Shown here piece by piece: positions 1 to 18,739 of a stretch of 29,842 bases of DNA (positions are counted from its first letter, which is position 1; every line of letters starts with the position of its first letter). The notes beneath the pieces are model-generated. The model was not told where the DNA came from, did not search any database, and worked only from the letters and a program-made list of their open reading frames with translations. This DNA comes from an uncultured Dehalococcoidaceae bacterium (GTDB lineage Bacteria > Chloroflexota > Dehalococcoidia > Dehalococcoidales > RBG-16-60-22), in NCBI GenBank assembly GCA_964414605.1, contig CAYPYL010000001.1, positions 1-29,842 on the forward strand, given 5' to 3'. Made by a program: the position numbers and the translations under genes.

Positions 1-95
1 AATAGCTTTTCGAGGTTCGTTCCCTTGGGCGGAGCGACCTCGCTGGTAACGACGAATTTTCCGGAACCAAGGGCTTCTTTGAAACGTGATACCAT
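1..95 (-). CDS. metF: Methylenetetrahydrofolate reductase MetF, 5' end only (runs off the window start; absent from ORF track)
   Basis: Manual translation from ATG at 95 gives MVSRFKEALGSGKFVVTSEVAPPKGTNLEKL. This matches the MetF N-terminus and the paralog at 17768 (EFIVTTEVGPPK). A GAGGGGG RBS lies just upstream, and the gene follows metV. Confidence 0.9.
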   Translation of the reverse strand, partial: MVSRFKEALGSGKFVVTSEVAPPKGTNLEKL

Positions 96-176: not shown

Positions 177-821
177 TTAAGTGATGGTGACGGCCCGCGG
201 CCTGGGGACTACGTGGTGATTTCGGGGCGCCTGATACCGGCGCATCAGGTCCAGCCTGCCCTGCTCTTTAAGTCGATTGTAGATGAGCGTCCAGGCGCAG
301 TCCTTCTCCTTATCGACCTCGCACTTGCCGTTATTGGTGCCGCCGCAGGGCCCGTTGACCAGCCCCTTGTGGCAGGCGGTGATGGGGCAGATGCCGGCGG
401 TCTCTCCGAGGATACACTGGCCGCACTGGGCGCAGGCCTCCCGGAAATAACCGGGCGTTTCTTCCACGCCGATGAACAGCGTATCCACCGCCGGAATTAT
501 CGGTTTATCAATATAAAGGTTCATGCGGTGTATACCCAGGGCGCAGCTCATCGATAGAACGGCATCGGCACCGCGGATGAACTGCTCATTTTCCTTCATG
601 GCGGCCTCGGTCATGTCGTCGCAGGCGGTGGGAATTACCATGGCGCCGGTAACGAGCTTGCCCATCTCCTGCAAATGCCCTTTCATCTCTTCTACCTGCT
701 CGATGCCGCCGGTACTGGTCAGGGTGGTACAGGTGCCGCAACCGACCACGAATATCTTATCCAGCCCCTCAAGGCCCCGCTGAATGTCTTCAATCGGTTT
801 TTGTCTTGTTATCGATTTCAT
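177..821 (-). CDS. metV: MetV, Fe-S subunit of MetVF-type methylene-THF reductase
   Basis: N-terminal GCGTC...GG motif and C-terminal 8-Cys block CAQCGQC-x8-CPITAC-x7-PC-x7-C-x7-CAW. Adjacent to metF. RBS GGAGGGG. Confidence 0.9.
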   Translation of the reverse strand: MKSITRQKPIEDIQRGLEGLDKIFVVGCGTCTTLTSTGGIEQVEEMKGHLQEMGKLVTGAMVIPTACDDMTEAAMKENEQFIRGADAVLSMSCALGIHRMNLYIDKPIIPAVDTLFIGVEETPGYFREACAQCGQCILGETAGICPITACHKGLVNGPCGGTNNGKCEVDKEKDCAWTLIYNRLKEQGRLDLMRRYQAPRNHHVVPRPRAVTIT

Positions 822-833
822 AGCTGACCCCTC

Positions 834-3800
834 CTAGCTTTCAAGGTCGCACCTCAAGCACCTTTTTGCCTCCCGGCGGGCTACGTCCTCCGTAAACCCG
901 AGCTCTATCTCTTCAAAGCTGGCTCGCCTTTCCGGGAGCGGCAGCGTCTTCACTTTAGACCTCGGTTTGAGTTCCCAGGACTCCTCCAACTCCGGCGCGG
1001 CCCCTTCGGCAACTTTTACTTTCCGGTCGTAAATCTCGACCCTTGTATCGTCGCCCCTCAAGTACTTATCAATGGCGATAGCCCCTCTCCTCCCGGCGGC
1101 AACAGCCTCGACGACCATGCCCGGCCCGGTCACGAAGTCGCCGCCGGCGAACACGCCGGTTACATTAGTGACCAGGGAGTTGCTATCGACCACCAGGGTT
1201 TCCCACCTTGTACGTTCCAGAGCGCTATCCGCAGGCAGGAAGGAGAGGTCCGGCGCCTGCCCTACGGCGGCGATAACCGTATCCGCCTCCGCGGTGAACT
1301 CCGAGCCACTCACGGGGACGGGCCGCCTTCGTCCGCTGTCATCTGGTGCTCCCAGCGTCATCCTGATGCATTGAAGCCCCGTTACCTTCCAGTTATTGCT
1401 GGTAATCCTGGTGGGGCTGGCGAGAAAACTTATATTCACACCTTCGGCGACGGCTTCATCATACTCGATATCGGAAACCGGCATTTCATCACGTGAGCGC
1501 CGGTAGTAGATACTGGCTTCACCGGCGCCGATGCGGAGCGCGGTCCGGGCGGCATCGAGGGCGACATTACCACCCCCCACGATGGCCACCCGATTGCCCA
1601 CGGTTACTTCCCTGCCCAGTCTGACATCGCGCAGGAACCTCAATCCGTAGTAAAGGCCTTCAATATCCTCGACCTCCCCGGGTATGCCGAGTCGCTGACT
1701 GCGCTGGGCACCCGCCGCGATAAACACCGAGGCGAAGCCGTCGTTTTTCAAGTCCTCGACAGTAAAATTAGTATTGATGGGGGTACCGTATTTAATCTCA
1801 ACTCCCCGCTTGATAATATAGTCGATATCCTGCTGGATGGCGGCGCTCGGCAGGCGGAACTCCGGTATCGCCACCGAAAGCATTCCACCTCCCACGGGAA
1901 GCGCTTCAAAGACCGTTACAGGGTAGCCCTCCTGCGCCAGAAAGTAGGCGCAGGCCAGGCCGGTGGGGCCTGCCCCCACCACGGCAATCTTCTCCCTCTT
2001 GGTTACCGGGAAAGGCTCGATATCACCGGTTTCCGAACCGTGCTCCGCATACCAGTCGGCGGCGAAGCGTTTCAGCGTCCTGATAGCCACGGGTTCATCA
2101 AGATCGCCGCGACGGCACCGTCCCTCACAGGGGTGGTGACAGATCCGACCACACACGGCGGCGAAGGGATTGCGTTCCCGTATGGTCTCGATGGCTTCCT
2201 TATATTCGCCCTCGGCGATATGCGCAACGTACTTGGGGATATTGATACCCGCGGGGCAGGTATGCTGACACGGCGAAATCATCAGGGTCTCGCAGACCGC
2301 AGCCGGGCATTTCTTTTCCCTGATATGCTCCTCGTACTCGCTGCGGAAGTAATTGATGGTAGATAAGACGGGATTAGGCGCCGTCTGCCCCAGGCCGCAG
2401 AGGGAACACTCCTTCACTGTCTTGGCTATCGACAGCAGGGACTCAATATCCTCGTCACGCCCCCTGCCCTCGGTAATCCTGGTAAGAATTTCCAGCATCT
2501 GGCGAGTGCCCAGTCGACAGGGTGTGCATTTCCCGCATGACTCGCTCTGGGTAAAGCTCAAAAAGTATCTGGCCACCTCCACCATGCAGGTGGCCTCGTC
2601 CATGACGACCATCCCACCGGAGCCCATGATGGAGCCGAGTCCGGCAAGCGTCTCGTATTCTATGGGTGTATCGATGAAGCGGGCGGGAATGCAGCCGCCG
2701 GAAGGTCCACCGGTCTGTACCGCCTTAAGCTGCCTGCCGCGCGGAATTCCGCCGCCGATGTTATTAATGATATGGGACAGCGGCGTGCCCATGGGCACTT
2801 CGACCAGACCGCTATTGGCGATTTTCCCGGTAAGAGCAAAAACGGCCGTGCCCTTGCTCTTCTCCGTGCCGATTCCGGCAAACCAGTCGGCGCCTTTTTC
2901 GATAATGACCGGGACAGTTGCCAGCGTTTTTACGTTATTTATAATGGTCGGTTTGCCATCCAGACCGGAGTTGGCCGGGAAGGGTGGTCTTGGGCGGGGC
3001 ATACCGCGCCGGCTCTCGATGGACGCTATCAGCGCCGTCTCCTCGCCGCAGACAAAAGCGCCGGCGCCTTCTTTTATATGGACTGTGAAATTAAAATCAG
3101 TACCGAGGATTCCTTTCCCCAGGAAATTTTTCTCCTGCGCCTGTTCGAGAGCCTTGCGAATGCGTTCTACGGCTAGCGGGTACTCGGCGCGGACATAGAT
3201 ATAGCCTTCACTGGCACCGATGGCGTAGGCGGCTATCGCCAGACCTTCCAGGACGGCATGAGGATCGGCTTCCAGAATGGAGCGGTCCATAAATGCCCCG
3301 GGGTCGCCTTCATCAGCATTGCATATCATGTATTTCTGCTCGCCGGCAGCTTTACGGCAGAATTCCCACTTGGTACCGGTGGGAAAGCCCGCCCCGCCCC
3401 TGCCCCGCAGACCGGAACTTTTTATAATGTCAATAACCTCTTCCGGCGCCATCATAAAGACCACTTTTTTGAGGGACTGGTATCCTCCCCTATTGATATA
3501 ATCGCTGATACGTTCGGGATTTATGTGCCCGCAGTTCCGCAAAACGATACGCTCCTGCTCCTGATAGAATTTAATATCCGCATATCCCGGTATTGCCTCG
3601 CCGGTCACCGGGTCGTGGTAGAAAAGGCGCTCAACCGGCTGGCCGTCGCGGAGGTGAGAAGTAACGATATCGGCGGCATCGTCTGCATCGACATGGGTAT
3701 AGAAGATGCCATCGGGTTCAACCACGACATTAGGTCCCTGCTGGCAGAAGCCGTGACAGCCGGTGAAGTCTATCTCGGCTCCGGTTACTCCCTGCTTTTT

Positions 3801-3893
3801 CAGTTCCGCCTTGAGAGCTTTGTAGACGTTGTCGCCGCCACCCGAGACACATCCGGTACCCCGGCAGACTAATACCTTGCGTTTTCGCGGCAT
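834..3893 (-). CDS. NuoF/HydB-like flavoprotein fused to a C-terminal GltD/NfnB-like FAD/NAD(P)H oxidoreductase domain (1019 aa from ATG 3893)
   Basis: N-terminal [2Fe-2S] domain (VCRGTGC...GCHGFCQQGP), GLRGRGGAGFP, NADEGDPGAFMDR, GAFVCGEETAL and CGKCTPC...CSLCGLG. These are followed by PCQHTCP, NPFAAVCGRIC, GAGPTG, GGGNVALD, YRRS, FAGGD and EAKRCLRC. ATG 3893 has RBS GGAAGGAG and lies 1 nt after the nuoE stop. Confidence 0.9.
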   Translation of the reverse strand: MPRKRKVLVCRGTGCVSGGGDNVYKALKAELKKQGVTGAEIDFTGCHGFCQQGPNVVVEPDGIFYTHVDADDAADIVTSHLRDGQPVERLFYHDPVTGEAIPGYADIKFYQEQERIVLRNCGHINPERISDYINRGGYQSLKKVVFMMAPEEVIDIIKSSGLRGRGGAGFPTGTKWEFCRKAAGEQKYMICNADEGDPGAFMDRSILEADPHAVLEGLAIAAYAIGASEGYIYVRAEYPLAVERIRKALEQAQEKNFLGKGILGTDFNFTVHIKEGAGAFVCGEETALIASIESRRGMPRPRPPFPANSGLDGKPTIINNVKTLATVPVIIEKGADWFAGIGTEKSKGTAVFALTGKIANSGLVEVPMGTPLSHIINNIGGGIPRGRQLKAVQTGGPSGGCIPARFIDTPIEYETLAGLGSIMGSGGMVVMDEATCMVEVARYFLSFTQSESCGKCTPCRLGTRQMLEILTRITEGRGRDEDIESLLSIAKTVKECSLCGLGQTAPNPVLSTINYFRSEYEEHIREKKCPAAVCETLMISPCQHTCPAGINIPKYVAHIAEGEYKEAIETIRERNPFAAVCGRICHHPCEGRCRRGDLDEPVAIRTLKRFAADWYAEHGSETGDIEPFPVTKREKIAVVGAGPTGLACAYFLAQEGYPVTVFEALPVGGGMLSVAIPEFRLPSAAIQQDIDYIIKRGVEIKYGTPINTNFTVEDLKNDGFASVFIAAGAQRSQRLGIPGEVEDIEGLYYGLRFLRDVRLGREVTVGNRVAIVGGGNVALDAARTALRIGAGEASIYYRRSRDEMPVSDIEYDEAVAEGVNISFLASPTRITSNNWKVTGLQCIRMTLGAPDDSGRRRPVPVSGSEFTAEADTVIAAVGQAPDLSFLPADSALERTRWETLVVDSNSLVTNVTGVFAGGDFVTGPGMVVEAVAAGRRGAIAIDKYLRGDDTRVEIYDRKVKVAEGAAPELEESWELKPRSKVKTLPLPERRASFEEIELGFTEDVARREAKRCLRCDLES

Positions 3894-3894
3894 A

Positions 3895-4380
3895 TTACTC
3901 CTTCCCACTCTTGCCAAATAGTCGGGCTACCTTCTTGGGATTCATGTCGCCGTGGGCTTCTTTGTTTATCATGAGATTCGGTGCCAGCGCACAGACACCG
4001 ATACAGGCGACCGTTTCGAGGGTATATTCCATGTCGTCGGTGGTTTCCCCCTCCTCAACGCCCAGGTACTGCCTGACCAGTTTCAGGATAGTCTTGCCGC
4101 CGCGCACGTGGCAGGCGGTTCCCCGACAAACCCGTACGATATTTTTACCCCGGGGATGGGTGTAAAGCTGCTCATAAAACGTAATCACCGCCTGTACCTG
4201 GCTGGGGAACAGCCCCAAGGCGGCGGCTATACGTGGTATGGCTTCCGGGGGAATATAGCCGACCTTCTCCTGGATCTCCTGGGTCAGGGGTATCAACGCC
4301 CATCTTTCACCCCGGTAACCCGCGATAATTTTATCTATCTGTCTCATGTTTACCGGGGGTGCTTTCTTTGCCTTATCCAT
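3895..4380 (-). CDS. NuoE/HydC-like [2Fe-2S] subunit
   Basis: VCRGTACHVRGG and VACIGVCALAP ligand motifs; TFY motif; 8-nt overlap with the upstream gene. Confidence 0.92.
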   Translation of the reverse strand: MDKAKKAPPVNMRQIDKIIAGYRGERWALIPLTQEIQEKVGYIPPEAIPRIAAALGLFPSQVQAVITFYEQLYTHPRGKNIVRVCRGTACHVRGGKTILKLVRQYLGVEEGETTDDMEYTLETVACIGVCALAPNLMINKEAHGDMNPKKVARLFGKSGKE

Positions 4381-7063
4381 TATCGGCAGTCCTTTCCAGT
4401 CTGACCGCGCATGATTTGAGCGCCGGCGTTTTGACCTGACGGTCGAGTACGGCAGGGAACAGGCCGTAAACGGGAGTGTTCGGGTAAGACATGGGCATAT
4501 AAAGCAGGCCGCGCGATAACGTGTTATTAACTTTAGCGGTTGCTGTTATCTCTCCCTGCGCCGAGATGACCTTTACGGTAGCGCCGTCGATTATGCCCGT
4601 TTCGGCGGCATCGTCATCGCTTATTTCCAGAAACGCTTCCGGAGAAAAACGGTTCAGCCGTCCCGACCGCGTGCTGCGCGCGCCGGTGCCAAAGTGATAA
4701 CGACTGGAGCCGACTATTAAAGTATGGGGATAGCCGTTGCTTTCCGCTTCCTGCGGAGGCGTATACTCCACGGTTAAAAACCGACCGAAACCGCTGGGGA
4801 AAAGTCCTTTATACAAACGCCGGTTCCCGTAATAGCCGTCTTCCTCTTCGGCCAGTTCCGGTTCTATAACGTCGCTGTCAACGCGGGCGGCATGATGGCA
4901 GAACGGCACCGATTCCTCGATTTCATTAAGCACTTCCTGTTGAGAGTCATACCGCAACGGGTAGTCCATCTTACCGGAGAGCTCCAGTATTATTTCCGCA
5001 TCAGGAAGGCTCTCGCCAACAGGCTCGATGGCCTTCGTTAGCTGCTGGACCCTCCCCTCGAAATTGGTGAAGGTGCCGTATTTTTCAGCGAAGCTGGCAG
5101 CCGGCAGCACCACCGAAGCCAGCGCGGCGGTTTCGGTCAGGAACATATCCGTCACCACCAGTAAATCGAGCCTCGCCAGGGCTTCCTTGACCAGGGACGT
5201 TTGAGGGAAACTCACCGCCGGATTTTCTCCCATGACGAACATCGCCTTCACCTTTCCAGTTCCCGCCGCCTCTATCATCTCCCAGGCTGTCAATCCGGCG
5301 TTCACCGGCAAGTCGCATCGCCAGCGCTCCTCGAACGTCTGCCTGTCTTGAGCGTTATTGATGTTCTTATAACCGGGCAGGAAATCGGGCAGAACGCCCA
5401 CGTCGCATGCTCCAAGGGCATTGTTCTCCCGTTGCAGGGCAAAAATCCCGCCGTGCCTGCCGGCATTCCCGGTGAGCATATTCAAATTTCCGATGGCGAT
5501 TACGGCATCGGTTCCGGTGACGTATTGCGTTATACCGTTCCCGTAGACGATAGAGGTTTGTTCGGCGCCGGCAATAATACGTGCGGCTTTCTGCATGTCT
5601 TTCCTGGGAACGCCCGTGATTTTCTCTGCGTATCCGGGTTCCTGCTGCTTCAGACTTTGAGCCCACCGCGCGAAGTTATCCGTCATACGGGTAACGAACT
5701 CTATATCCATTTTCCCCTCTTCGATAATCACCCTGGCAAGTTCGTTGAGCAGGGCTACATCGGTACCCGTGCGGGGTTTGAGCCACATATGGGCGAACTG
5801 CGATAGCGACGTCCGGCGCGGGTCTACGACGATTAAACCGGCACCTTTATTCCTGACGGCTCGCTTGATGGCATAAGCTACGGCGGGAGCCGATATTTCC
5901 GGGTCGGCCCCGATGACCATTATCACCTGTGATTTTTCCAGCGAATCTATAGTTCCGGTAGTGCCGGCGTAGCCGACGGATGTACCCAGGCCCACCCGGC
6001 TCGCGGCGCTGTAAAGACGACTGCCGTTATCAATGTTGTTGGTGCCCAGGACGACGCGAGTGAACTTCTGGAGAAGATAATTTTCCTCATTGGTGCACTT
6101 TGAGGAGCCGAATACGGCGATAGCGTCGGCGCCGTGGTTCTCTTTTATCCGGTTGAGTTCACCGGCCACCCGAGAAAGCGCTTCTTCCCAGGTAGCCTCC
6201 TGAAACTGGCCATCTACTTTAACCTGCGGATGAAGCAGTCGCTCCGGACTGTGAATAAAGTCGTACCCGTAACTCCCCCGCACGCACAGAGTGCCGGCGT
6301 TCACCTGCCCTTCCGGGGGAGGCCTGGAAAATATTACCCTGCCGTCCTTGACTCCCAGACAAACGGTGCACCCGCAGCCGCAATAAGGACATATCGTGGT
6401 GACCGTTTCCGTCGCCGTACCGCTATAAGCCCTTTCCTTCTCCATCAGGGCGCCTGTCGGGCAGATAGCCACGCAGGTGCCGCAGAAGGTGCACTCCGAT
6501 TTTTCCAGCGGCATATCGTTCAGGGTCGCCGGCCTGACCGCAGCGCCGCGGTCGATATAGTCGATAGCCCCCTCCACGACCAGCTCCTGGTCAGCCCTGA
6601 TGCACTTGCTACACATGATACACTTGGAGAGGTCGCGCTCGATAAACGAATTGACTTCTTCGATTATGTCCAGCTGCGGAATTCTCTGGAACTCGACGAG
6701 GCCGATTCCCATTTCCGCCGCCAGCTTGCGTAACTGACAGCTATTTCCCTTATCGCAAACCAGGCAGGAATCGGGGTGGCTGGCGAGGAGGAGTTTTAAG
6801 ATTTTTTTTCGGTGCTCCACCACCCGCGGTGAGTTGGTCTTGATAACCATTCCCGGCGATATAGGCGTCACGCAGGAAGCCAGCAAAGCACCGTTGCGTT
6901 CGTCCTCCACCAGGCAGAGACGGCAGGCTCCTACCGATGCCAGATTAGGGTCGTAGCAGAGAGTAGGAATATATACCCCGGATTCCCGCGCCAGGTCCAG
7001 GATAGTAGTGCCCGGGTAACCGCTTACCTCGACGTCATTCAGGACAATCGTAATTGCTTCCAC
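4373..7063 (-). CDS. FdhA/NuoG-like molybdopterin-oxidoreductase-family subunit with a non-canonical active site
   Basis: [2Fe-2S] (CYDP...GACRLC...SC), HPDSCLVC-x5-C, 2x[4Fe-4S] domain, CPYCGCGC...LC cluster, GSSKCTNEENY, NNID, LPAASFAEKYGTFTNFEGRVQ and a molybdopterin-dinucleotide-type C-terminal domain. GTG start directly after the upstream TGA. Confidence 0.85.
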   Translation of the reverse strand: MEAITIVLNDVEVSGYPGTTILDLARESGVYIPTLCYDPNLASVGACRLCLVEDERNGALLASCVTPISPGMVIKTNSPRVVEHRKKILKLLLASHPDSCLVCDKGNSCQLRKLAAEMGIGLVEFQRIPQLDIIEEVNSFIERDLSKCIMCSKCIRADQELVVEGAIDYIDRGAAVRPATLNDMPLEKSECTFCGTCVAICPTGALMEKERAYSGTATETVTTICPYCGCGCTVCLGVKDGRVIFSRPPPEGQVNAGTLCVRGSYGYDFIHSPERLLHPQVKVDGQFQEATWEEALSRVAGELNRIKENHGADAIAVFGSSKCTNEENYLLQKFTRVVLGTNNIDNGSRLYSAASRVGLGTSVGYAGTTGTIDSLEKSQVIMVIGADPEISAPAVAYAIKRAVRNKGAGLIVVDPRRTSLSQFAHMWLKPRTGTDVALLNELARVIIEEGKMDIEFVTRMTDNFARWAQSLKQQEPGYAEKITGVPRKDMQKAARIIAGAEQTSIVYGNGITQYVTGTDAVIAIGNLNMLTGNAGRHGGIFALQRENNALGACDVGVLPDFLPGYKNINNAQDRQTFEERWRCDLPVNAGLTAWEMIEAAGTGKVKAMFVMGENPAVSFPQTSLVKEALARLDLLVVTDMFLTETAALASVVLPAASFAEKYGTFTNFEGRVQQLTKAIEPVGESLPDAEIILELSGKMDYPLRYDSQQEVLNEIEESVPFCHHAARVDSDVIEPELAEEEDGYYGNRRLYKGLFPSGFGRFLTVEYTPPQEAESNGYPHTLIVGSSRYHFGTGARSTRSGRLNRFSPEAFLEISDDDAAETGIIDGATVKVISAQGEITATAKVNNTLSRGLLYMPMSYPNTPVYGLFPAVLDRQVKTPALKSCAVRLERTADNG

Positions 7064-7879
7064 TCAAGCTGTCTCCCCATCCTGTACCTTCGGCTGGAGA
7101 GATTCAATCCACGACTGGTCGCCACGCGCCACGGAACGGATACCGGTCAGCAGCCGGGAACTGGCGGCGGCTTTGGGGATAAACCCCACCGCCCCCACCT
7201 TTTTACTGGCAAGGACATTCTCCTCGTCGTCGTACTGCGTCAGCATCAGGACCTTGGCGGTCTTTTGTTTCTGGCAAATTTCACGGGCGGCGTCCAGTCC
7301 GTTCATCACCGGCATGATAATGTCCATCACCACGACATCCGGTATGAGCTCCATAGTCTTCTCCAGCGCCTCTTTCCCGTTGACGGCCTCCCCGACGACC
7401 TGCATATCCCGCTGCAGCGTAAGCACGGATTTTATCCCGTCCCTTACCACCGCGTGGTCATCGACAATCAGCACCCTGATTTTCTTGGTAGCCCTGTCCA
7501 GCAGGGCCTGGATGCGGGGTACCAGGGCAACCGGCTCGACGGGCTTGGCGAGGAAATCTTCGGCGTCTATCTGCATACCCTCATCCATTCTCCAACCCTT
7601 GAGCAGTTGCTTTTCCGGCGGAGCATTGATAACCATGATTGGTAGATTGCCAAACCCCAGGGTCTGCTTCATCCATTTGTGGAACAGAAAGGCATCGCCG
7701 CGGGGCATAATCGTGCCCAGGACAATCGCGTCGGGCTCGTGAGAGCGTACCGACTCTTTAGCCTCTTCCTGGTCGCCGGCGGTGACGACGGTATACCCTA
7801 CTTTTTCCAGGGCCTTCTTTACCTCTTCTAAAAATTCTTCTTCGTCATCCACTATCAGAATCGTTTGTTCTTTTTCCAT
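7064..7879 (-). CDS. Tandem pseudo-receiver + NarL-type receiver protein with no output domain (271 aa from ATG 7879)
   Basis: First REC domain ILIVDDE...IVLGTIMP...KP; second REC domain VLIVDDH...VVMDIIMP...LTQYDD...PK. No HTH. RBS AAAGGAGG before ATG 7879. Confidence 0.88.
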   Translation of the reverse strand: MEKEQTILIVDDEEEFLEEVKKALEKVGYTVVTAGDQEEAKESVRSHEPDAIVLGTIMPRGDAFLFHKWMKQTLGFGNLPIMVINAPPEKQLLKGWRMDEGMQIDAEDFLAKPVEPVALVPRIQALLDRATKKIRVLIVDDHAVVRDGIKSVLTLQRDMQVVGEAVNGKEALEKTMELIPDVVVMDIIMPVMNGLDAAREICQKQKTAKVLMLTQYDDEENVLASKKVGAVGFIPKAAASSRLLTGIRSVARGDQSWIESLQPKVQDGETA

Positions 7880-7930
7880 TTTTTGCCTCCTTTCACCGGA
7901 AGCGCCTATAGTTACCACTATATGATGCAT

Positions 7931-8082: not shown

Positions 8083-8736
8083 CTAAAGAGTGATGATACC
8101 CTTACGCAGAGCGGCTTTAACCAGTTCGACGCGGTTATGGACACCCAGCTTCAGCATGAGATTGGTCTTGTGCCCTTCCACGGTCTTGGGGGTTATGACC
8201 AGGATATTCGCTATTTCCTGTGTGCTGCGGCCTTCCGCGAGCAACTTGAATACCTCGCGCTCGCGTGTTGTTAATCTGTTATACGGGTCCTGCATCGTAC
8301 GTTGGCCGGCGGAGTCCCGATAGTTGTCCACCATCAGCTTGGTAACGGACGGCGAAAGGTAAGAGTCCCCCCGGAAGACCGAGCGTATCCCCACCGTGAG
8401 TTCCGAAGACGCCGCCGCCTTACTGATAAATCCGGAGGCGCCTGACTCGATAACCGGAAAGAAATACTCTTTATCATCGTACTGGGTAAGGACAAGCACT
8501 TTGGTCCTCGGGAATTCTTTACTTATGCGGCGCGTTGCCTCCAGACCGCCCATCACCGGCATGGCAATATCCATGAGCACAACATCAGGGTCCAGCTCCC
8601 GCACCTTGTCCAGTGCTTCGTTGCCGTTGGTAGCTTCTCCCACTACCTCGATATCACCGGATAATGCCAGCAGGGCGCTAATGCCGTCGCGTATGATGGT
8701 ATGGTCGTCAACTACCAGCACTCTTATCTTTTGCAT
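8083..8736 (-). CDS. NarL/FixJ-family response regulator (REC + LuxR-type HTH)
   Basis: VLVVDDH, PDVVLMDIAMP, LTTREREVFKLLAEGRSTQEIA, TPKTVEGHKTNLMLKL. Confidence 0.95.
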   Translation of the reverse strand: MQKIRVLVVDDHTIIRDGISALLALSGDIEVVGEATNGNEALDKVRELDPDVVLMDIAMPVMGGLEATRRISKEFPRTKVLVLTQYDDKEYFFPVIESGASGFISKAAASSELTVGIRSVFRGDSYLSPSVTKLMVDNYRDSAGQRTMQDPYNRLTTREREVFKLLAEGRSTQEIANILVITPKTVEGHKTNLMLKLGVHNRVELVKAALRKGIITL

Positions 8737-9970
8737 ATGCTATTTCCTGTCCGACCGGTATCCTGGCCCAGACCTTGGTACCCTTCCCCGGTTCAGATTC
8801 GATTCCGCTGGTGCCGCCGAGAAAACCGATTCTCTCCCTCATGCTGAACAGACCGCGCCCCCGACCGCTCTCCTCTACATCGGTAATTTCTGACACGTTA
8901 AATCCCTGGCCGTCATCGGTAATGGTGAGTATAAATTCATCCTGCCTGAATTCCAGTATCATGGCAGCATTCTTTGCTTTGGAATGTTTGACGATGTTGC
9001 CGATGGCGCTCTGGACGAAACGGAAAAGGGCTGCCTCGACATCAGGTGGAAACCTCATTTCTTTGCCTTTTGTCTCTATGGTCACGTTGATTTCAAGCAA
9101 CTGCAACCTGGACTCCACGTTCTGGCGAATCGCCGGTACCAGTCCCAGCGTATCCAGTAAAGCCGGGTGCAGGTTGGATATCAGCCGACTTACCTCGTTG
9201 TGCACCTGCACGGTCAATGCCTGTACCTTTTTCAGTCCGGCGGTAAATTCAGGCTCATGCTGGCCGGACATGGCGGATAACTCAATCAATGCCTGCAACT
9301 GTAGGGCTATCCCGGAAAGCGATTGACTGGTCTCGTCGTGAAGTTCGCGGGCTATCCTTCTCCTCTCGTCCTCCTCCGCCATCAGGTTCTGGCGGGCGAG
9401 CCTGCGCAGCCTCTCCCGCGCTTTCCTCAAGCGCTCGTACAGTCTGGCGTGTTCTACGGCGATGCCGAGCTGGTCGCCGATAGCGTAAAGCAGATGCATA
9501 TCGCTGGTGGTAAATTTACGGGACTCGCGACTGGCCACGTTCAGAACGCCCAATACCTTATCCCTGGCCCGGAGGGGCACACATACATATGCCTTCAGCC
9601 CCTCCGCCGCAACCATCTCCCGATGTGCCACCCGCGGGTCCGCGGAGATATCTTCGAGGAGAATAGCCTTGCCGGTCTTGGCCACGCTGCCGGAAATACC
9701 TTCGCCCAGGCTCAAACTTACATTCTCCACGAATTCCTTGCTTAGACCGCGATGTACTACGTGGGAGAGTTCCTGGGTGAGTTCATCGATGAGTAATATC
9801 TCACCGATGGTCCCGTTCATGATATCCAGGGTGCTGTCAAGACCGACACCGAGAATGGCATTTAAGTCCCAAAGGCCGCTTAACGCCGCCGATATCCTGC
9901 TTAATACCAGAAGCTCGGACTGCTGCCCGCCCTTTTTCACTTTTAGCCCATGCGTCCCAGAGGAGTTCAT
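8708..9970 (-). CDS. Cytoplasmic GAF + HisKA_3 + HATPase sensor histidine kinase
   Basis: GAF (VPLRARDKVLGVLNV), H-box ERRRIARELHDETSQ, NIVKHS, DDGQGF, GRGLFSM, GKGT. No transmembrane segment seen. ATG 9970 preferred over TTG 9994. Confidence 0.92.
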   Translation of the reverse strand: MNSSGTHGLKVKKGGQQSELLVLSRISAALSGLWDLNAILGVGLDSTLDIMNGTIGEILLIDELTQELSHVVHRGLSKEFVENVSLSLGEGISGSVAKTGKAILLEDISADPRVAHREMVAAEGLKAYVCVPLRARDKVLGVLNVASRESRKFTTSDMHLLYAIGDQLGIAVEHARLYERLRKARERLRRLARQNLMAEEDERRRIARELHDETSQSLSGIALQLQALIELSAMSGQHEPEFTAGLKKVQALTVQVHNEVSRLISNLHPALLDTLGLVPAIRQNVESRLQLLEINVTIETKGKEMRFPPDVEAALFRFVQSAIGNIVKHSKAKNAAMILEFRQDEFILTITDDGQGFNVSEITDVEESGRGRGLFSMRERIGFLGGTSGIESEPGKGTKVWARIPVGQEIAYAKDKSAGS

Positions 9971-10024
9971 TTTTCCCCACACTCCTCCCCTCAACTATAT
10001 TACGGCAACTATAACGTATCAATT

Positions 10025-10087: not shown

Positions 10088-11308
10088 CTATCCGCTCCTG
10101 ATGCTGCGGATAATTTCACCCAGTTTGGGCCTTTTCCCATACATGAGCAGGTAAATTCTGAAAACCTTGATGGATATATATAATACACCGATGATAGAGA
10201 GTGCCAGTAACACGATGCTGGTAGCCATTTCCCAGGCAGGGATATCGCTGACTCCCAGCCTTAGCATCGCTTCTACGGGAGCCGTGATGGGGAAAATAGT
10301 CAGGACTGTCCAGATTGGGCTTTTCGGGAATATCATCAATAAAGATGAGAACCAGAGGGGTACGATGGCAAACATGGAATAAATCAGGGATAATTGCGTT
10401 CCTTCCCGGGCATTGGGGCTGATGGCGCCGACACCCGCCGAAAGCGCAGTGAACAATAGATATCCCAATATGAAATAGATAATCCCCAGAACGATGAAGT
10501 TAGCCGGTATCTGTATTGTGCTGAAAAAACCGCCGAAAGTGGATGAGGCCAGGTTCAACAGGAGCGGCAGTGAGATAAGCCAGACTACCACCTGTACCAG
10601 ACCAGCTATACCCAGTCCCAACACCTTTCCAGTGAGTAATTGCCGGGTGGTAACGGAGGACAGTAATACCTCAATAAGCCGGCTCTCTTTCTCCTCTCCC
10701 AGTCCCTGTACCATATAGCCGGCAAAGAAATTCAGAGAGAGGGCAAGCAGCAGGCTGAAAATAGCGGGAACAAGGAGATTCGCGAAGCCGCCCTGCTCGG
10801 TAGCCACTGCGCCGGTTTCGGTAAGTCTGGTAGTCGCCAGATATAACGGGGATTCAACGAGCTGAATAATACCGGCAGGCACTTCCCCCGATAAGAGATT
10901 ACTCGTAAGAAAACTCTTTATGGCGGACTGAATTCCCGGGGGTGGTTCCAGCTGTTTCTCCAGAGTATACAGGTTTACTAATCCCGCCGACGTGTAAGAC
11001 GTTGAAATGACGAAATATTCCGAAACGTCGTCCGCGAGTAAGGCAGCCGTCGCCTCATCCTGCGTAGGGTAGCGGACCATCTCGATTGGCCCCTGGGCGG
11101 TATACCGATCGAATCCGCCGATTTCATCAACGTACCCGATGGTAGTCGTTTCTACTTCCGACGGCTCGATGATTGACGATATCAGCTGGACGACGCCTAT
11201 CGCCAGGAGAGCCAGGACCGGCACGATAAGGGTCATCACGATAAATCCTGTCCGCTTTATCGTATGCAGGAATTCGTGCCTGAATATCAGCAGCGTCTTC
11301 CTATCTAT
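10088..11308 (-). CDS. ABC-2 type (NatB-like) permease; probable non-canonical ATA start at 11308
   Basis: EEKESRLIEVLLSSV, LLTGKVLG and multiple TM helices. The frame stays open upstream of the ORF-track start and gives IDRKTLLIFRHEFLHTIKRTGFIVM after SD AAGGAGGT. Confidence 0.88.
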   Translation of the reverse strand: MDRKTLLIFRHEFLHTIKRTGFIVMTLIVPVLALLAIGVVQLISSIIEPSEVETTTIGYVDEIGGFDRYTAQGPIEMVRYPTQDEATAALLADDVSEYFVISTSYTSAGLVNLYTLEKQLEPPPGIQSAIKSFLTSNLLSGEVPAGIIQLVESPLYLATTRLTETGAVATEQGGFANLLVPAIFSLLLALSLNFFAGYMVQGLGEEKESRLIEVLLSSVTTRQLLTGKVLGLGIAGLVQVVVWLISLPLLLNLASSTFGGFFSTIQIPANFIVLGIIYFILGYLLFTALSAGVGAISPNAREGTQLSLIYSMFAIVPLWFSSLLMIFPKSPIWTVLTIFPITAPVEAMLRLGVSDIPAWEMATSIVLLALSIIGVLYISIKVFRIYLLMYGKRPKLGEIIRSIRSG

Positions 11309-12195
11309 TTTTTCGCCACCTCCTTCAGGAATATCTCGTTAAGCGAGGGAGTGGCCATCTCAAAACGATTGATGACTATACCGCGGCTTACCAGCTGCTC
11401 CAGGATTTGTTGAGGGGTTGTCTTCTCATCCAGCAACAGTTCGACGTAGCCCTTGTGCTGGCGTTTCCCGGTAACCCCGGATACGTCACCCAGTTCACCT
11501 TCGGTATTAACGAAAACCGAATTGCCTCTGTATTTCGACTTTATTTCAGCCAGGTCACCGTAAAGGACGGCGCGCCCGTTGTTTACCATCAGGATACGGT
11601 CGCACAGTTCCTCCACCTGGTTCATCTGATGAGCGCTCAAGACGACGGCTTTACCCTGATTCTTCAAGTCGACACATATCTCTCTCAACAGCTCTACGTT
11701 CACCGGGTCGAGGCCGGAAAATGGCTCGTCCAGAATAACCAGCTGCGGGTCATGCGTGATAGTAACAACGAACTGAATAATCTGACTCATACCCTTGCTC
11801 ATTTCCTCGATTTTCTTTCCCTTATTGGTTAACATGCCTGTTTTTTCGAGCAGTTCGCTGGCCCTTTCTTCCGCCCGATGCCGGTCCATGCCCTTAAGGG
11901 AAGCAAGGTATATTATTGTTTCAAGGACTTTCAGTTTTTTATACAGGCCTCTTTCCTCGGGCAGGTAGCCGAGGTTATTCTGGGCATCTTCACCGAACTT
12001 CTTGCCGAAGACAAATACCTCACCCGAATCCGGTCTGATGATGTCCATCGCCATCCTGATTGTCGTGGTCTTGCCCGCGCCGTTGGGGCCTATCAGACCG
12101 AATATCTCGCCCTGATTGACCGAGAAAGACAGGTCATCAACAGCGATTTTATCCGCAAATGTCTTGACTACATGGCTGACTTTAACTGCCTGCAT
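11305..12195 (-). CDS. ABC transporter ATP-binding subunit (NatA-like)
   Basis: Walker A GPNGAGKTT, signature MSKGM, Walker B VILDEP, H-loop SAH. Confidence 0.95.
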   Translation of the reverse strand: MQAVKVSHVVKTFADKIAVDDLSFSVNQGEIFGLIGPNGAGKTTTIRMAMDIIRPDSGEVFVFGKKFGEDAQNNLGYLPEERGLYKKLKVLETIIYLASLKGMDRHRAEERASELLEKTGMLTNKGKKIEEMSKGMSQIIQFVVTITHDPQLVILDEPFSGLDPVNVELLREICVDLKNQGKAVVLSAHQMNQVEELCDRILMVNNGRAVLYGDLAEIKSKYRGNSVFVNTEGELGDVSGVTGKRQHKGYVELLLDEKTTPQQILEQLVSRGIVINRFEMATPSLNEIFLKEVAKK

Positions 12196-12492: not shown

Positions 12493-14121
12493 GTGGATGT
12501 GGAGATGGGTACGAAAAAAGCAGAGACGTCCGAGCCTATAGACTCCGGGCTGAAAGTTGACCTACAGGAAATAATCGATGCCGTAGAAGACGAGCTTCTG
12601 CTAGTCGACCCCGATTACCGTGTCAGGTTCGCTAATGCAGCTATGCTCAATAAATACCAGACCAAAGGCGATTCGCCTATCGGCAAGTTGTGCTATAAGG
12701 TCTTTCATAACAGGAACACTCCCTGCCATGAACCTTTTTGGGACTGCCCCCTGCAACAGGTCGTTGAAAGCGGGAACATGACGACGGTTATTCATCCTGT
12801 CAACCAGCCCGGAGTTCATGGTTACGTAAAAATCACGGCATATCCTATTTTTGACAAGCAGGGCAAGACCAGAGCCATGGTGGAATTGCGGAGGGATGTC
12901 ACCGCGGAAAGAGAACTGGAAACGCAGATTCTCAGGCGACATCATCAACTTTTAGCATTGAGTCATATCTCGGGTGCCGTGAGCGGACTGTATGATCTGG
13001 ATACCATTTTAAAGACTGCACTGGATGATGTGCTAGAGCTTGTTAACAGCGACATCGGAGGCATTTTACTCTTTGATGAAGAGTCCCAGACCTTGAGCTA
13101 TCGGGTACAGCGTGGATTATCCGCAAAATACACCGAAGAGGCTAAAATACCCCTGGGTAAGAGCATCGCGGGACAGGCGGCAGAAATCGGCGAGCCCATA
13201 ATAGTGGAGGATATTTCCAAGGACCCGCGTATCACCCGGCCGGAGCTAGTTATCGCCGAGGGACTCAAAGGATTTGTGAGTATTCCCCTTAAGGCGAAGG
13301 AAAAAGTGACCGGGGTAATGAATATCGCCAGCCACGTGGCAAACCGTTTTGCCGCCGACGAGGTCTCTTTACTCAAGTCGATTGGCGATTATCTGGGTAC
13401 GGCAATTGAGCAGGCAAGACTCTACGATAGGCTGGCGCAGGCGGGAGAAAGATATCGGGCGCTTCTACAACACGCCCTGACGGCACAGGAACAGGAACGA
13501 AAGAGGATAGCCCGCGAATTACACGACGACACCAGCCAGGCGATTACCAGCCTGACCTTAAGCCTCCAGGCGATAATGACGATTGCGGAGATGAAGGGTA
13601 TCGGGGATGCCGAATTTATAGAGAAGGTCAAAGCGACGCACTCCTTCGCGGTTCACGCCGGCCATGAAATCGTGAGGCTAATGAAAGAACTCCGGCCCAG
13701 CCTGCTGGATGAGCTCGGTATGCCGGCGGCGATACACCGTTACGCCAAGGACACGCTTCAGTCTCATGGAATCAACGTATCTTCTGAATTTAATGGTACG
13801 GAAAAGAGGTTCCCGCCAGAGGTCGAAGTGACTCTTTTCCGGGTGGCGCAGGGACTAATCGGCAATATCCTGGAACACTCCGAAGCGAAGAATACCCTGG
13901 TTAAACTGGAATGTGATGAAAATGAGTGTACGCTGTATATAGAGGACGATGGCAAAGGCTTTGATGTGAAGAAACTAACGCGGGTTGACCCCAGCGGAAG
14001 GGGGGCGGGTTTGTTCACTCTCAAGGAGAGGGTAAGTCTGGCCGGAGGACACTGCCATATCGACTCCCGTCCGGGGCAGGGCACCAAGGTAACCGTAAAA
14101 ATACCGCTTGTGGAAATTTAA
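12493..14121 (+). CDS. Cytoplasmic PAS (Cys-motif) + GAF + HisKA_3 + HATPase sensor histidine kinase
   Basis: PAS (VDPDYRVRFAN...GKLCYKVF...RDVT), GAF (IPLKAKEKVTGVMNI), H-box ERKRIARELHDDTSQ, DDGKGF, GAGLF, GQGT. Confidence 0.92.
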   Translation: MDVEMGTKKAETSEPIDSGLKVDLQEIIDAVEDELLLVDPDYRVRFANAAMLNKYQTKGDSPIGKLCYKVFHNRNTPCHEPFWDCPLQQVVESGNMTTVIHPVNQPGVHGYVKITAYPIFDKQGKTRAMVELRRDVTAERELETQILRRHHQLLALSHISGAVSGLYDLDTILKTALDDVLELVNSDIGGILLFDEESQTLSYRVQRGLSAKYTEEAKIPLGKSIAGQAAEIGEPIIVEDISKDPRITRPELVIAEGLKGFVSIPLKAKEKVTGVMNIASHVANRFAADEVSLLKSIGDYLGTAIEQARLYDRLAQAGERYRALLQHALTAQEQERKRIARELHDDTSQAITSLTLSLQAIMTIAEMKGIGDAEFIEKVKATHSFAVHAGHEIVRLMKELRPSLLDELGMPAAIHRYAKDTLQSHGINVSSEFNGTEKRFPPEVEVTLFRVAQGLIGNILEHSEAKNTLVKLECDENECTLYIEDDGKGFDVKKLTRVDPSGRGAGLFTLKERVSLAGGHCHIDSRPGQGTKVTVKIPLVEI

Positions 14122-14124
14122 CGT

Positions 14125-14778
14125 ATGAAGAAAATAAAGGTATTGATAGTTGATGACCATACCCTGGTACGGGCCGGAATACGTTCCCTGCTGATGCTCG
14201 TCGATGATATCGAAGTAGTCGGCGAGGCATCGGACGGTAAAGAAGCCCTGACAAAGGTAAGGCAACTCATGCCTGACGTGGTACTCATGGACCTGGCAAT
14301 GCCGGTCATGGGCGGACTCGAAGCCACACGACGTTTACGAAAGGAATTCCCCGGCATAAAGGTACTGGCACTGACACAATATGACGATAGCGAATATGTT
14401 ATTCCCATCATCGAAGCAGGTGCCAGCGGTTTTGTAACTAAGATGTCGGCGTTTACGGAGCTTGCCGCGGCTATCGAAGCCGCCAATAGAGGAGAATCCT
14501 ACCTGTCTTCAACTGCCGCCACGGCTCTTGTCGAGGAATATCAGCAGAAAATACCATCTAACGGCGAACAGGACCCTTACCAGCAGCTAACGGATAGGGA
14601 GAGGGAAGTGATTAAGCTGGTTGCGGAAGGGCATACCAGCCGTGAGATTGCCGAGATACTTATCGTCAGCCCCAAGACGGTGGAGTGGTATAAAAGCAGC
14701 TTGATGAACAAGCTGAACCTCCGCAGCAAGACCGACCTGATTAAGTATGCCATCCGCAAGCGGATAATAACAATATAG
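14125..14778 (+). CDS. NarL/FixJ-family response regulator (REC + LuxR-type HTH)
   Basis: VLIVDDH, PDVVLMDLAMP, LTDREREVIKLVAEGHTSREIA, SPKTVEWYKSSLMNKL. Confidence 0.95.
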   Translation: MKKIKVLIVDDHTLVRAGIRSLLMLVDDIEVVGEASDGKEALTKVRQLMPDVVLMDLAMPVMGGLEATRRLRKEFPGIKVLALTQYDDSEYVIPIIEAGASGFVTKMSAFTELAAAIEAANRGESYLSSTAATALVEEYQQKIPSNGEQDPYQQLTDREREVIKLVAEGHTSREIAEILIVSPKTVEWYKSSLMNKLNLRSKTDLIKYAIRKRIITI

Positions 14779-14836
14779 CCGCATCACAGTGAGCCCCTTA
14801 AACCCAGCGATAGCCAGTACTTTTCCCGGTTGAGAA

Positions 14837-14855
14837 TTAGGGTATTTACCGGTAT
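14837..14855. promoter_or_regulatory. Candidate response-regulator operator TTAGGGTATTTACCGGTAT
   Basis: Shares TAGGG-N-ATTTACC-NNN-AT with 7946-7963; lies upstream of the right redox operon. Confidence 0.5.
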
Positions 14856-14920
14856 ATATTCCAGAGCCGTACCCCCTTGCTTTCCGTTGCATTTCCTATT
14901 GCCTGGTTCCGGCGGTCTGG

Positions 14921-14929
14921 TGGCATAAT
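14921..14929 (+). promoter_or_regulatory. Possible extended -10 (TGGCATAAT) of the right redox operon
   Basis: TG-n-CATAAT about 57 nt upstream of ATG 14987. Confidence 0.35.
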
Positions 14930-14986
14930 TAAGTAGTATATTAACCGTCGATTGTTGCCACTCAACAGAGATTGAGGTGTTTGCTG

Positions 14987-17095: not shown

Positions 17096-17775
17096 TAGTA
17101 GCGGAGCAAAAGCCTCTGGAAGATATAATACGCATGATTGGCCCTTATCAACGAGTATTGATACTCGGTTGTGGCACCTGCATGACGGTATGTGACGCCG
17201 GTGGTGAGCGTGAGGTCTCTTTTCTCCACGACGCATTACAGCTGGCGCAGACAAGGAGTGGTGAAGGTGCTCATACCTTTACCGAACATACCGTGAAAAG
17301 GCAGTGCGACCCGGAGTTCCTGGAGCCGCTTGCCGAAAGAATAGCTGATTTGGACGTAATACTATCGCTGGGTTGTGGCATCGGCGTGCAGGCTATAGCG
17401 GAACGTTTTGCGGATATGCCGGTGCTGCCCGGCGTTAACACCTCTTTCATGGGTATGACTAAAGAATCGGGGGTCTGGGATGAGCGCTGCGCCGCTTGCG
17501 GTGAGTGCCGGCTGGAAGACACTGCCGGCATATGTCCAATCACCAGGTGTACTAAAGGCATACTCAACGGTCCCTGTGCCGGTACTAAGAACGGTAAATG
17601 TGAGGCTAATAAGGATATGGACTGCGCCTGGATTTTAATTTATCAGCGCCTGGAAAGATTACAGCAACTGGACAAGATGCGCCGGTATTACGCTCCCCGG
17701 AATTACCGGGCAATCCCCAGACCGAGAAGAATCACGATTAACGTAGAGACTGCGGTGGGAGAAAGCGATGGCTAA
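17092..17775 (+). CDS. metV: MetV, second copy
   Basis: GCGTCMTVCDAGG, RQCD, GCGIG and 8-Cys block CAACGEC...CPITRC...PC...C...CAW. TTG start overlaps the upstream TGA. Confidence 0.92.
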   Translation: MIVAEQKPLEDIIRMIGPYQRVLILGCGTCMTVCDAGGEREVSFLHDALQLAQTRSGEGAHTFTEHTVKRQCDPEFLEPLAERIADLDVILSLGCGIGVQAIAERFADMPVLPGVNTSFMGMTKESGVWDERCAACGECRLEDTAGICPITRCTKGILNGPCAGTKNGKCEANKDMDCAWILIYQRLERLQQLDKMRRYYAPRNYRAIPRPRRITINVETAVGESDG

Positions 17776-18670: not shown

Positions 18671-18739
18671 GGTGCCTTTGGTCAGGTATATTACCGGGTG
18701 GCCATAATGGCTATATTCACGGTAGTGGAGGAGAATGAG

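Follow-up and report, generated by a model that had tools for sequence, protein, structure and literature searches.

How the reduction of methylene-tetrahydrofolate (methylene-THF), or the reverse oxidation of methyl-THF, is coupled to energy is an old question for acetogens, acetate oxidizers, and complete-oxidizing sulfate reducers. Electron transfer from methyl-THF (-200 mV) to NAD(P)+ (-320 mV) is uphill, and ferredoxin has long been postulated to assist it by confurcation. The accepted methylene-THF reductases (MTHFRs) of acetogens, types I to IV, consist of MetF alone, MetVF alone, MetVF with RnfC2, and MetVF with HdrABC-MvhD (Oeppinger et al. 2021). In a single paragraph, Yi et al. (2021; PMC8515935) added an unstudied "X-type" MTHFR, in which NuoEFG homologues are encoded upstream of metFV in Dethiosulfatarculus sandiegensis and "widely in Desulfobacterales and Chloroflexi"; bifurcation was speculated, and the MetFV proteins formed a separate phylogenetic group. 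Here, we describe an operon of this kind on a contig of 29,842 nucleotides (nt) from an uncultured Dehalococcoidaceae bacterium (CAYPYL010000001.1, analyzed over its full length and called the window below). It encodes an FdhA-like subunit with a rewritten active site (FdhA*), a NuoE-like subunit, a NuoF~GltD fusion protein, MetV, and MetF. We consider it probable that FdhA* is a formate-inactive Fe-S trunk or scaffold of the NuoG/BfuA kind, in a NuoE/NuoF~GltD/FdhA* module coupled to MetVF.

The window operon is an X-type cluster in the sense of Yi et al. (2021), and FdhA* is its "NuoG homologue": genes for NuoE, NuoF, and NuoG homologues lie directly upstream of metV-metF, and the taxa belong to the Desulfobacterales and Chloroflexi in both cases. 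The published account does not include the full-length FdhA-type nature of the "NuoG," its rewritten site, the GltD/NfnL-like fusion, or the tandem-receiver gene that precedes FdhA*. Literature searches, including ones that combined Bfu with MTHFR and Dehalococcoidia with MttB and MetF, returned no description of the FdhA-like subunit, the rewritten site, or the GltD fusion, and MetF goes unmentioned in the Bfu family survey. With FdhA*, NuoE, and NuoF~GltD as partners of MetVF, the operon fits none of MTHFR types I to IV. The original prediction, made from the letters of the window, had proposed an examination of gene neighborhoods; inspection of the loci brought out the NuoE/NuoF~GltD/MetV/MetF operon, of which it had said nothing.

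Another point of comparison is offered by the Bfu-family bifurcating transhydrogenases StnABC of Sporomusa ovata (8OH5) and NfnABC of Caldicellulosiruptor saccharolyticus (9BOV). StnC is annotated as a formate dehydrogenase (FDH); it had no formate:methyl viologen activity, and the literature describes its FdhF-like domain as inactive in catalysis. NfnA has an incomplete pterin site without pterin density, and the cluster branch toward the site is considered a remnant. All modules of these enzymes are present in the window operon, namely a NuoE-like subunit, a NuoF-like subunit with an N-terminal 2Fe-2S site, an NfnL/GltD-like FAD/NADPH domain, and an Fdh/NuoG-like part without the Cys ligand. 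The arrangement differs, however. In Stn/NfnABC, the Fdh/NuoG-like subunit carries the GltD-like domain as an insertion, whereas in the window operon this domain sits at the C terminus of the NuoF-like subunit, in place of the two-cluster (B3/B4) ferredoxin domain of BfuB, a C-terminal domain with two 4Fe-4S clusters that has been reported to be essential for bifurcation. Furthermore, the Fdh-like domain of Stn/NfnABC is truncated and lacks domain IV (template modeling [TM] score of 0.65 to the FdhA* model), whereas FdhA* is complete (TM score of 0.94 to FDHs). By its domain content, the system in the window thus appears to be a permuted relative of Stn/NfnABC.

FdhA* is an unbroken open reading frame (ORF) of 896 amino acids (aa); coordinates of this and all other features are collected in Table 1. 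The original prediction had covered only positions 4373 to 6320, which correspond to the molybdopterin part, the C-terminal three quarters of the ORF. In the N-terminal NuoG-type region (aa 1 to 214), ligands are present for a 2Fe-2S site (C36/47/50/64), a His-ligated 4Fe-4S site (H96 and C100/103/109), and two further 4Fe-4S sites (C148/151/154/201 and C191/194/197), and all Fe-S ligands of FdhA* are invariant across the family. The Pfam order, which runs from Fer2_4 through the NuoG His-cluster region and a two-cluster ferredoxin-like domain to Molybdop_Fe4S4, Molybdopterin, and Molydop_binding (PF13510, PF10588, and PF22117 for the N-terminal clusters; PF04879, PF00384, and PF01568 for the molybdopterin part), is the complete architecture of the alpha subunit of cytoplasmic NAD-type FDHs. 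FdhA* scored 652.2 bits against the NCBIfam model of FDH alpha (TIGR01591), just below the curated cutoff of 666.25, and 346.8 bits against the NuoG model TIGR01973 (cutoff, 470.05). Its best solved relatives are real FDHs, namely B. subtilis ForCE and the enzymes of M. extorquens and R. capsulatus, as well as E. coli FdhH; identity to NAD-dependent FDH alpha subunits is 33 to 45%. An AlphaFold model built from a 95-sequence alignment had a mean predicted local distance difference test score (pLDDT) of 90 and a predicted TM score (pTM) of 0.92, and it superposed on NAD-FDH alpha subunits with TM scores of 0.93 to 0.94, compared with 0.70 to 0.77 for complex I NuoG and 0.65 for NfnA. Since that alignment includes real FDHs, FDH-like pocket loops in the model are uninformative about the cofactor. 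A first model, from 29 close homologues, was poor (pLDDT, 63.8; pTM, 0.44) and was discarded.

Within this FDH-like frame, the active site is systematically rewritten. The original prediction had quoted four departures from FDH motifs, and all four were found in place, with their codons checked. In HMMER alignments to solved FDHs, Tyr351 falls opposite the ligand Cys in the FdsA-type "ARVCHS" and in the B. subtilis "SRYCQS"; aligned by MAFFT, FdhH from the E. coli K-12 genome pairs U140 with Y351, H141 with S352, R333 with Q544, K44 with R262, and R581 with S786. The four FS0 cysteines were kept in the latter alignment. Realignment by both programs therefore places Tyr, and not Cys, at the ligand position, as the original prediction had it. 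To judge how unusual these states are, we used a canonical set of 44 sequences, comprising FdhH and the 43 of 150 cluster representatives at 50% identity that carry both C/U-H and RG. The His141, Arg333, and Lys44 positions were 100% conserved in this set. Among its 102 columns with at least 85% conservation, the consensus of the FdhA* family keeps 80 and E. coli NuoG keeps 38; among the 22 columns that differ in the FdhA* family are those of the ligand loop, the Arg loop, Lys44, and the TGR motif. Three basic residues, R460, R581, and H181 in FdhH numbering, are present in at least 93% of true FDHs and are Gly, Ser, and Ala in FdhA*. These three residues may contact the pterin phosphates.

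The rewritten residues characterize a family. The best 120 database homologues of FdhA* shared 65 to 87% identity with it and came from Chloroflexota/Dehalococcoidales metagenome bins wherever a source was named. Tyr351 was found in 113 of the 118 full-length homologues (the exceptions being two Cys and one each of Phe, Asn, and His), alongside Q544 in 116, R545 in 116, A549 in 116, R262 in 111, and G670 and S786 in all 118. Judging by these counts, the Tyr pattern is neither chance nor a sequencing artifact. We also considered Sec (selenocysteine) recoding or a frameshift that would conceal the true ligand; the unbroken ORF, the Tyr351 codon (TAC at 6011 to 6013, with no in-frame TGA), and the 113 agreeing homologues rule this out. 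Pairwise ratios of nonsynonymous to synonymous substitution rates (dN/dS) between FdhA* and six orthologues were about 0.07 to 0.11, with dS saturated. The claim that the fold and Fe-S motifs are intact and that the unbroken ORF is maintained held up in light of the model superposition, the invariant ligands, and dN/dS near 0.1, all of which indicate a maintained gene. In a sub-clade of 901-aa proteins in the family (P0062, P0066, P0067, P0073, and P0075; 2400 to 5105 in locus L004), residue 352 is Cys (R-L-Y-C), in some cases together with residue 351 (R-L-C-C), and Glu546 gives way to C, H, or G. The sub-clade occurs in the same MetVF-containing operon, and these changes may mark either a reversion or another use of the pocket.

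Similar losses have been described in other members of this superfamily, and they help to place FdhA*. StnC, which was solved without pterin (8OH5, chain C), has a Tyr-Ser pair aligned with Tyr351-Ser352 and an Arg at the Lys44 position; in NfnA, the residues there are Glu, at the ligand position, and Phe. The Tyr-Ser shared by StnC and FdhA* could reflect common ancestry or convergence. NAD-dependent FDH alpha subunits (R. capsulatus FdsA, 6TG9; M. extorquens FDH1, 7VW6; B. subtilis ForCE, 8RQZ) have the same full-length architecture, fold, and NuoE/NuoF-type partners, but FdhA* differs from them in lacking the Cys/Sec, His, Arg, Lys, and TGR Arg, in its faster-evolving MopB part, and in having MetVF downstream, which is rare for canonical FDHs. 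NuoG/Nqo3 shares the N-terminal Fe-S region, and its molybdopterin-like domain has no cofactor; however, NuoG keeps 37 to 39% of FDH-conserved columns, compared with about 80% in FdhA*, and membrane-arm nuo genes are absent around FdhA*. OmeA, or "CISM" protein, of Dehalococcoides, from the same bacterial class, is FDH-like, has a Ser where Cys/Sec would be, and shows no formate activity, but it is a periplasmic, Tat-exported FdnG-type protein of the organohalide-respiration complex and thus differs from FdhA* in subfamily, partners, and location. SfrAB and NsoABC, both compared by description, combine an FdhA/NuoG-like Fe-S subunit with a GltD-like NADPH subunit and lack the link to MetVF. 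The Stn paper lists both, from Geobacter sulfurreducens and Thermococcus litoralis, respectively, as homologues.

The partner subunits resemble those of bifurcating enzymes. The best PDB matches of the NuoF half are B subunits of electron-bifurcating enzymes, led by A. mobile NiFe-HydB (7T2R_B; 767 bits) and followed by HydB, NfnB, and StnB, compared with 405 bits for complex I Nqo1. After the segment KKCPAAVCETL, the fusion protein runs straight into a two-cluster domain of the GltD/NfnL type. For the GltD half, the nearest matches are the NfnL-like domains of C. saccharolyticus NfnA (409 bits) and S. ovata StnC. When the GltD half was joined artificially to residues 96 to 896 of FdhA*, the chimera gave a colinear, single-domain alignment to residues 103 to 998 of NfnA (563 bits) and also aligned to StnC, and the C-terminal C-L-R-C of NuoF~GltD aligned with the Cys motif at the NfnA domain junction. 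No nuoA, nuoH, or nuoJ to nuoN genes occur in the window or in orthologous loci. MetF runs off the window and is complete in the orthologous loci L001, L002, L004, and L006. A scan of the operon for promoters and terminators gave the same counts as shuffled sequence.

We compared loci obtained from contig look-ups and from a scan of one genome per GTDB species. Eleven Dehalococcoidia loci encode an FdhA* at 53 to 73% identity, and the next matches do not exceed 43%. In all nine Dehalococcoidia loci whose flanks are long enough, the genes run receiver protein, FdhA*, NuoE, NuoF~GltD, MetV, and MetF; the tally for Desulfobacterales/delta loci is 4 of 4. The same order, with a noncanonical FdhA-like protein, is seen at five Desulfobacterales/deltaproteobacterial loci (L031, L046, L052, L054, and L073), and in this protein the motifs read DNGG-Y-x-SG, L-A-R-E-N-N-Q, LCVRG, and GSxRYHLGSGTR; R262, G347, R545, E546, G670, and S786 are derived states common to both groups. 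The tandem-receiver protein lies upstream of FdhA* in all Dehalococcoidia loci (54 to 86% identity) and is absent in the Desulfobacterales version. FdhA* has diverged to 41% identity between the two phyla, while the five-gene order has been strictly held. Conversely, 64 other loci carry a canonical Sec/Cys FdhA, and MetV lies within 10 kb in only 3 of them. NuoE-NuoF~GltD is found directly upstream of canonical FdhA in 11 of the 64, including L019, L023, and L033, the last from a Dehalococcoidia metagenome-assembled genome (MAG).

These canonical combinations are of interest in themselves. Loci in which NuoE and NuoF~GltD precede a Sec/Cys FdhA without MetVF (L019, L023, L033, L074 to L076, and L080) are predicted to encode NADH/NADPH-linked FDHs with a Stn-like parts list, of which we found no description. 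In the deltaproteobacterial locus L043 (4029 to 18172), genes encode MetF, NuoE, NuoF~GltD, a canonical Cys FdhA, a second NuoE, a shorter NuoF-like protein, MetV, a 487-aa ORF product, and a second MetF; this may be an intermediate or composite arrangement. In locus L006 (2211 to 6627), from a relative at 67% identity, genes for two MttB-family methyltransferases, a corrinoid protein, a pterin-binding methyltransferase, and a RACo-type activator lie immediately upstream of the kinase-regulator-FdhA* operon, which suggests a tie to methylamine/betaine demethylation and methyl-THF oxidation.

In a neighbor-joining tree of 144 sequences, canonical FDHs formed a tight group and noncanonical proteins a long-branched grade, in which the Dehalococcoidia and Desulfobacterales FdhA* were not neighbors; the deep branches are not trusted. 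We nevertheless regard the two FdhA* clades as sisters because of their N-terminal identity of 51 to 56% (canonical, at most 45%), their shared operon, and their closer GltD, MetV, and MetF sequences. Most simply, a formate dehydrogenase of the NuoE/NuoF~GltD/FdhA type would have lost its catalytic site and become associated with MetVF, although this rests on two lineages rather than on 13 independent events. Degeneration of this kind is common. Of 131 sufficiently long cluster representatives at 50% identity, 91 lack the canonical ligand/His/Arg/Lys set (the 40 canonical ones including E. coli FdhH). Going by these representatives, degenerate FdhA-like proteins appear abundant and diverse in metagenomes, with the Tyr family among the least degenerate, so the Tyr substitution is less surprising than it would seem on its own. 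The original prediction therefore overrated the novelty of FdhA*, given also that the operon type was already in the literature. No fusions of FdhA-like proteins to MetV or MetF of the Rosetta-stone kind were found among seven long representatives, which included GltD-FdhA fusions with an intact active site. Unusual fusions among the FdhA-like cluster representatives (P0123, P0197, and P0221) comprise a tandem duplication of a noncanonical FdhA-like protein (1405 aa), a GltD-FdhA with an intact active site and a MobA-like domain (1589 aa), and an RnfD/NqrB-like membrane domain joined to a noncanonical FdhA-like protein (1131 aa).

We asked whether the two parts of FdhA* are under similar constraint. 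The ratio of the proportions of nonsynonymous and synonymous differences (pN/pS) was 0.10 to 0.15 in the Fe-S part versus 0.25 to 0.30 in the molybdopterin part. At equal N-terminal identity, pairs from the FdhA* family were 9 to 12 points lower in MopB than canonical FDH pairs, for which the bins were small (n = 30, 7, and 3). Similarly, the Dehalococcoidia and Desulfobacterales FdhA* share 51 to 56% identity in the N-terminal part and 35 to 38% in MopB, whereas the relation is reversed in canonical representatives (35% and 43%, respectively). By these comparisons, constraint is more relaxed on the molybdopterin part than on the Fe-S part, which is the reverse of the pattern in real FDHs and fits a loss of catalysis.

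Taken together, these observations lead to a model in which FdhA* would descend from an FDH alpha subunit that lost formate oxidation while keeping all four domains of the fold along with its clusters, one 2Fe-2S and four 4Fe-4S. NADH would be handled at the FMN of NuoF and NADPH at the FAD of the GltD-like half, and the 2Fe-2S/4Fe-4S chain of FdhA* would connect the two sites and serve as a platform. MetV and MetF, co-transcribed with the module, would complete the path to methylene-THF, so that the five proteins would link methylene-THF/methyl-THF (about -200 mV) to pyridine nucleotides, with ferredoxin as a possible third partner in bifurcation or confurcation. A NuoEF core of the bifurcating type would be the right kind of device for such ferredoxin-assisted confurcation. 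We infer the loss of pterin and metal from FdhA*, its physical contact with MetVF, and any bifurcation. The second metVF cluster of the window is also paired with a GltD-like module, and this suggests that GltD-like modules feed MetVF in the source organism.

Several observations weigh against FdhA* being simply an Fe-S scaffold. Its rewritten columns are better conserved than the molybdopterin part as a whole (0.89 versus 0.78), and several of the rewritten residues are common to the Desulfobacterales sister clade; since they are highly conserved, partly across phyla, the pocket presumably still matters for something. Outside ten active-site columns, the family keeps 80 to 87% of FDH-conserved columns (canonical mean, 93%, with a minimum of 81%; Desulfobacterales sister, 67 to 69%; E. 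coli NuoG, 39%). Equivalents of FdhH D478 and K679 are kept in both FdhA* clades and lost in NuoG, and FdhA* retains domain IV, which is deleted in Stn and NfnA. The complete four-domain fold, the close superposition of the model on holo-FDHs, the retained columns, and rewritten pocket residues that are 93 to 100% conserved would all be expected if FdhA* still bound a pyranopterin with or without Mo/W, the metal being either ligand-less or O-ligated by Tyr351, and used it for non-formate catalysis or for an electron-transfer or structural role. However, the three basic FDH residues are replaced by Gly, Ser, and Ala, the constraint on MopB is relaxed, and Tyr351 is disfavored as an essential metal ligand because five of the 118 homologues have Phe, Asn, His, or Cys instead. 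The pterin-free StnC shares the aligned Tyr-Ser and the Arg at the Lys44 position, and the cofactor-less E. coli NuoG also has Arg44, Arg334, and Gly460 (FdhH positions). No Moco-related genes were seen in the FdhA* neighborhoods, a test of low power; for the Moco sulfurase FdhD, adjacency in none of nine FdhA* loci versus only 5 of 41 canonical loci is too weak a test for use. We know of no Tyr-ligated member of this enzyme superfamily. On balance, we think it very likely that the molybdopterin site performs no catalysis, and we doubt that a pterin is retained in some role. Of the two alternatives that the original prediction had left standing, the NuoG-like Fe-S relay or scaffold is therefore favored, and a Mo/W enzyme with a novel ligand appears unlikely. 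Similarly improbable, in our view, is that the pocket (Tyr351, Arg545, Glu546, and Arg262) holds a pterin-type cofactor or a partner element that forms an electron exit from FS0 to MetV, the five proteins being a flavin-based bifurcating/confurcating methylene-THF reductase that couples NADH, NADPH, and ferredoxin to methylene-/methyl-THF. If true, this would supply the energy-coupled MTHFR that has long been sought in the Wood-Ljungdahl pathway.

The coupling of the module to MetVF is also open to challenge. In S. ovata, stnABC lies directly downstream of metVF, yet the enzyme purifies separately, as a transhydrogenase of StnABC only, so adjacency is no proof of a complex; moreover, the BfuB two-cluster domain that is reported to be essential for bifurcation elsewhere gives way to the GltD module in the window operon. 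The operon might therefore encode a stand-alone transhydrogenase of the Stn/NfnABC type (NADH-dependent ferredoxin:NADP+ oxidoreductase) with permuted domains, in which FdhA* is a cofactor-less scaffold and MetVF is separate and co-transcribed for the Wood-Ljungdahl pathway. The full set of Stn/NfnABC modules speaks for this possibility, as do the occurrence of canonical FDH-Nuo clusters near metVF (L039, L043, and L060) and the tendency of Wood-Ljungdahl genes to cluster. Still, a stand-alone enzyme does not account for a five-gene order fixed in two phyla despite 41% identity of FdhA*, for MetFV proteins that form their own phylogenetic group, or for a full 680-aa MopB with domain IV if this were a mere remnant, and the C-terminal ferredoxin domain of BfuB, part of the NfnABC ferredoxin site, is missing. 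We give it a limited chance of being right. Lastly, public pipelines name the protein "formate dehydrogenase subunit alpha," and its 40 to 45% identity to real FDHs might suggest a working FDH with unconventional residues. We consider this extremely improbable, since the ligand, His, Arg, and Lys are all missing and StnC, with the same Tyr-Ser, has no formate:methyl viologen activity. In addition, a canonical Sec/Cys FdhA occurs with the same NuoE-NuoF~GltD partners elsewhere, including the Dehalococcoidia MAG L033, so canonical chemistry was available to the lineage. The replaced residues and a TIGR01591 score below the cutoff give good support to the view of the original prediction that FdhA* is very probably not a formate dehydrogenase.

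Table 1. Features of the window, with positions in nucleotides and strand
Feature	Position	Strand	Remarks
FdhA* (FdhA-like subunit)	4373..7063	-	896 aa; GTG start abutting the stop codon of the preceding gene; ORF unbroken
FdhA* N-terminal NuoG-type Fe-S region (aa 1-214)	6422..7063	-	Pfam, family alignment
FdhA* Molybdop_Fe4S4 (FS0) domain (aa 219-272)	6248..6409	-	Ligands C225/228/232/260 kept
FdhA* molybdopterin-oxidoreductase domains (aa 275-697)	4973..6241	-	With rewritten site; Pfam, alignment
FdhA* Molydop_binding domain IV (aa 782-886)	4406..4720	-	Retained; Pfam, alignment
LCVRG (aa 259-263)	6275..6289	-	Arg262 replaces the FDH Lys that bridges FS0 and pterin
D-N-G-S-R-L-Y-S (aa 345-352)	6008..6031	-	Tyr351 at Cys/Sec ligand position, Ser352 at His position
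L-Q-R-E-N-N-A-L-G (aa 543-551)	5411..5437	-	Gln544 at catalytic Arg position; Arg545 shifted by one residue
V-G-S-S-R (aa 784-788)	4700..4714	-	Stands for T-G-R; Ser786 at TGR Arg position
NuoE/BfuC-like 2Fe-2S subunit	3895..4380	-	161 aa; C85/90/126/130; start overlaps FdhA* end by 8 nt
NuoF~GltD fusion protein	834..3893	-	1019 aa; likely ATG at 3893, 2 nt past NuoE stop
NuoF/BfuB-like half of NuoF~GltD	2280..3893	-	N-terminal 2Fe-2S C18/23/54/58; FMN/NADH site; 4Fe-4S C461/464/467/507
GltD/NfnL-like half of NuoF~GltD	834..2279	-	Two 4Fe-4S sites; FAD site; NADPH-type motif YYRRSRDEMP
MetV (methylene-THF reductase small subunit)	177..821	-	NGPCGG motif; two 4Fe-4S sites; 15 nt after fusion gene
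MetF start	1..95	-	First 31 codons; ATG at 95; 80 nt after MetV; remainder runs off window
Tandem-receiver protein without output domain	7064..7930	-	TGA abuts FdhA* GTG
LuxR-type response regulator	8083-8736	-	Conserved upstream of operon
GAF histidine kinase	8708-9994	-	Conserved upstream of operon
ABC-2 type transporter permease	10088-11239	-	Between the two metVF regulons
DrrA-like ATPase (ABC-2 type transporter pair)	11305-12195	-	Between the two metVF regulons
PAS-GAF histidine kinase	12493-14121	+	Second metVF cluster
LuxR-type regulator	14125-14778	+	Second metVF cluster
GltD/NfnL-like NADPH domain ~ two-cluster ferredoxin ~ MvhD fusion	14972-17095	+	707 aa; second metVF cluster
MetV, second copy	17092-17775	+	Only about 40% identical to first MetV
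MetF, second copy	17768-18670	+	Second metVF cluster
Tandem-receiver protein, second copy	18698-19594	+	Second metVF cluster
ORF with repeated right-handed beta-helix and NosD-like domains	20603-28888	-	Single ORF of 2761 aa

The second metVF cluster (12493 to 19594, plus strand) is oriented divergently from the FdhA* operon and has its own regulators; it looks like a further MTHFR type outside those described. Tandem-receiver proteins sit inside both metVF operons of the window. The GC skew changes sign near 12 to 13 kb, where the two gene blocks diverge. Farther along, the product of the 2761-aa ORF is probably a giant surface or secreted protein.

Altogether, the best reading is that FdhA* is a known kind of degenerate FdhA/NuoG-like scaffold in an already noted but uncharacterized NuoEFG-MetFV system, and the interest of the finding lies in the operon more than in the Tyr substitution. 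The family is named "formate dehydrogenase (NADP+) alpha subunit" by NCBI and JGI, a label that is probably wrong, and counting FdhA* as an FDH would overstate formate metabolism and the completeness of the Wood-Ljungdahl pathway in reconstructions of subsurface Dehalococcoidia and Desulfobacterales. The family may represent an intermediate stage on the way from a catalytic molybdoenzyme to an Fe-S scaffold, between real FDHs and NuoG/StnC. As a single transcription unit that brings together a NuoEF core of the bifurcation type, an NADPH module, and MetVF, the operon is a concrete candidate for the energy coupling of methylene-THF reduction and methyl-THF oxidation.

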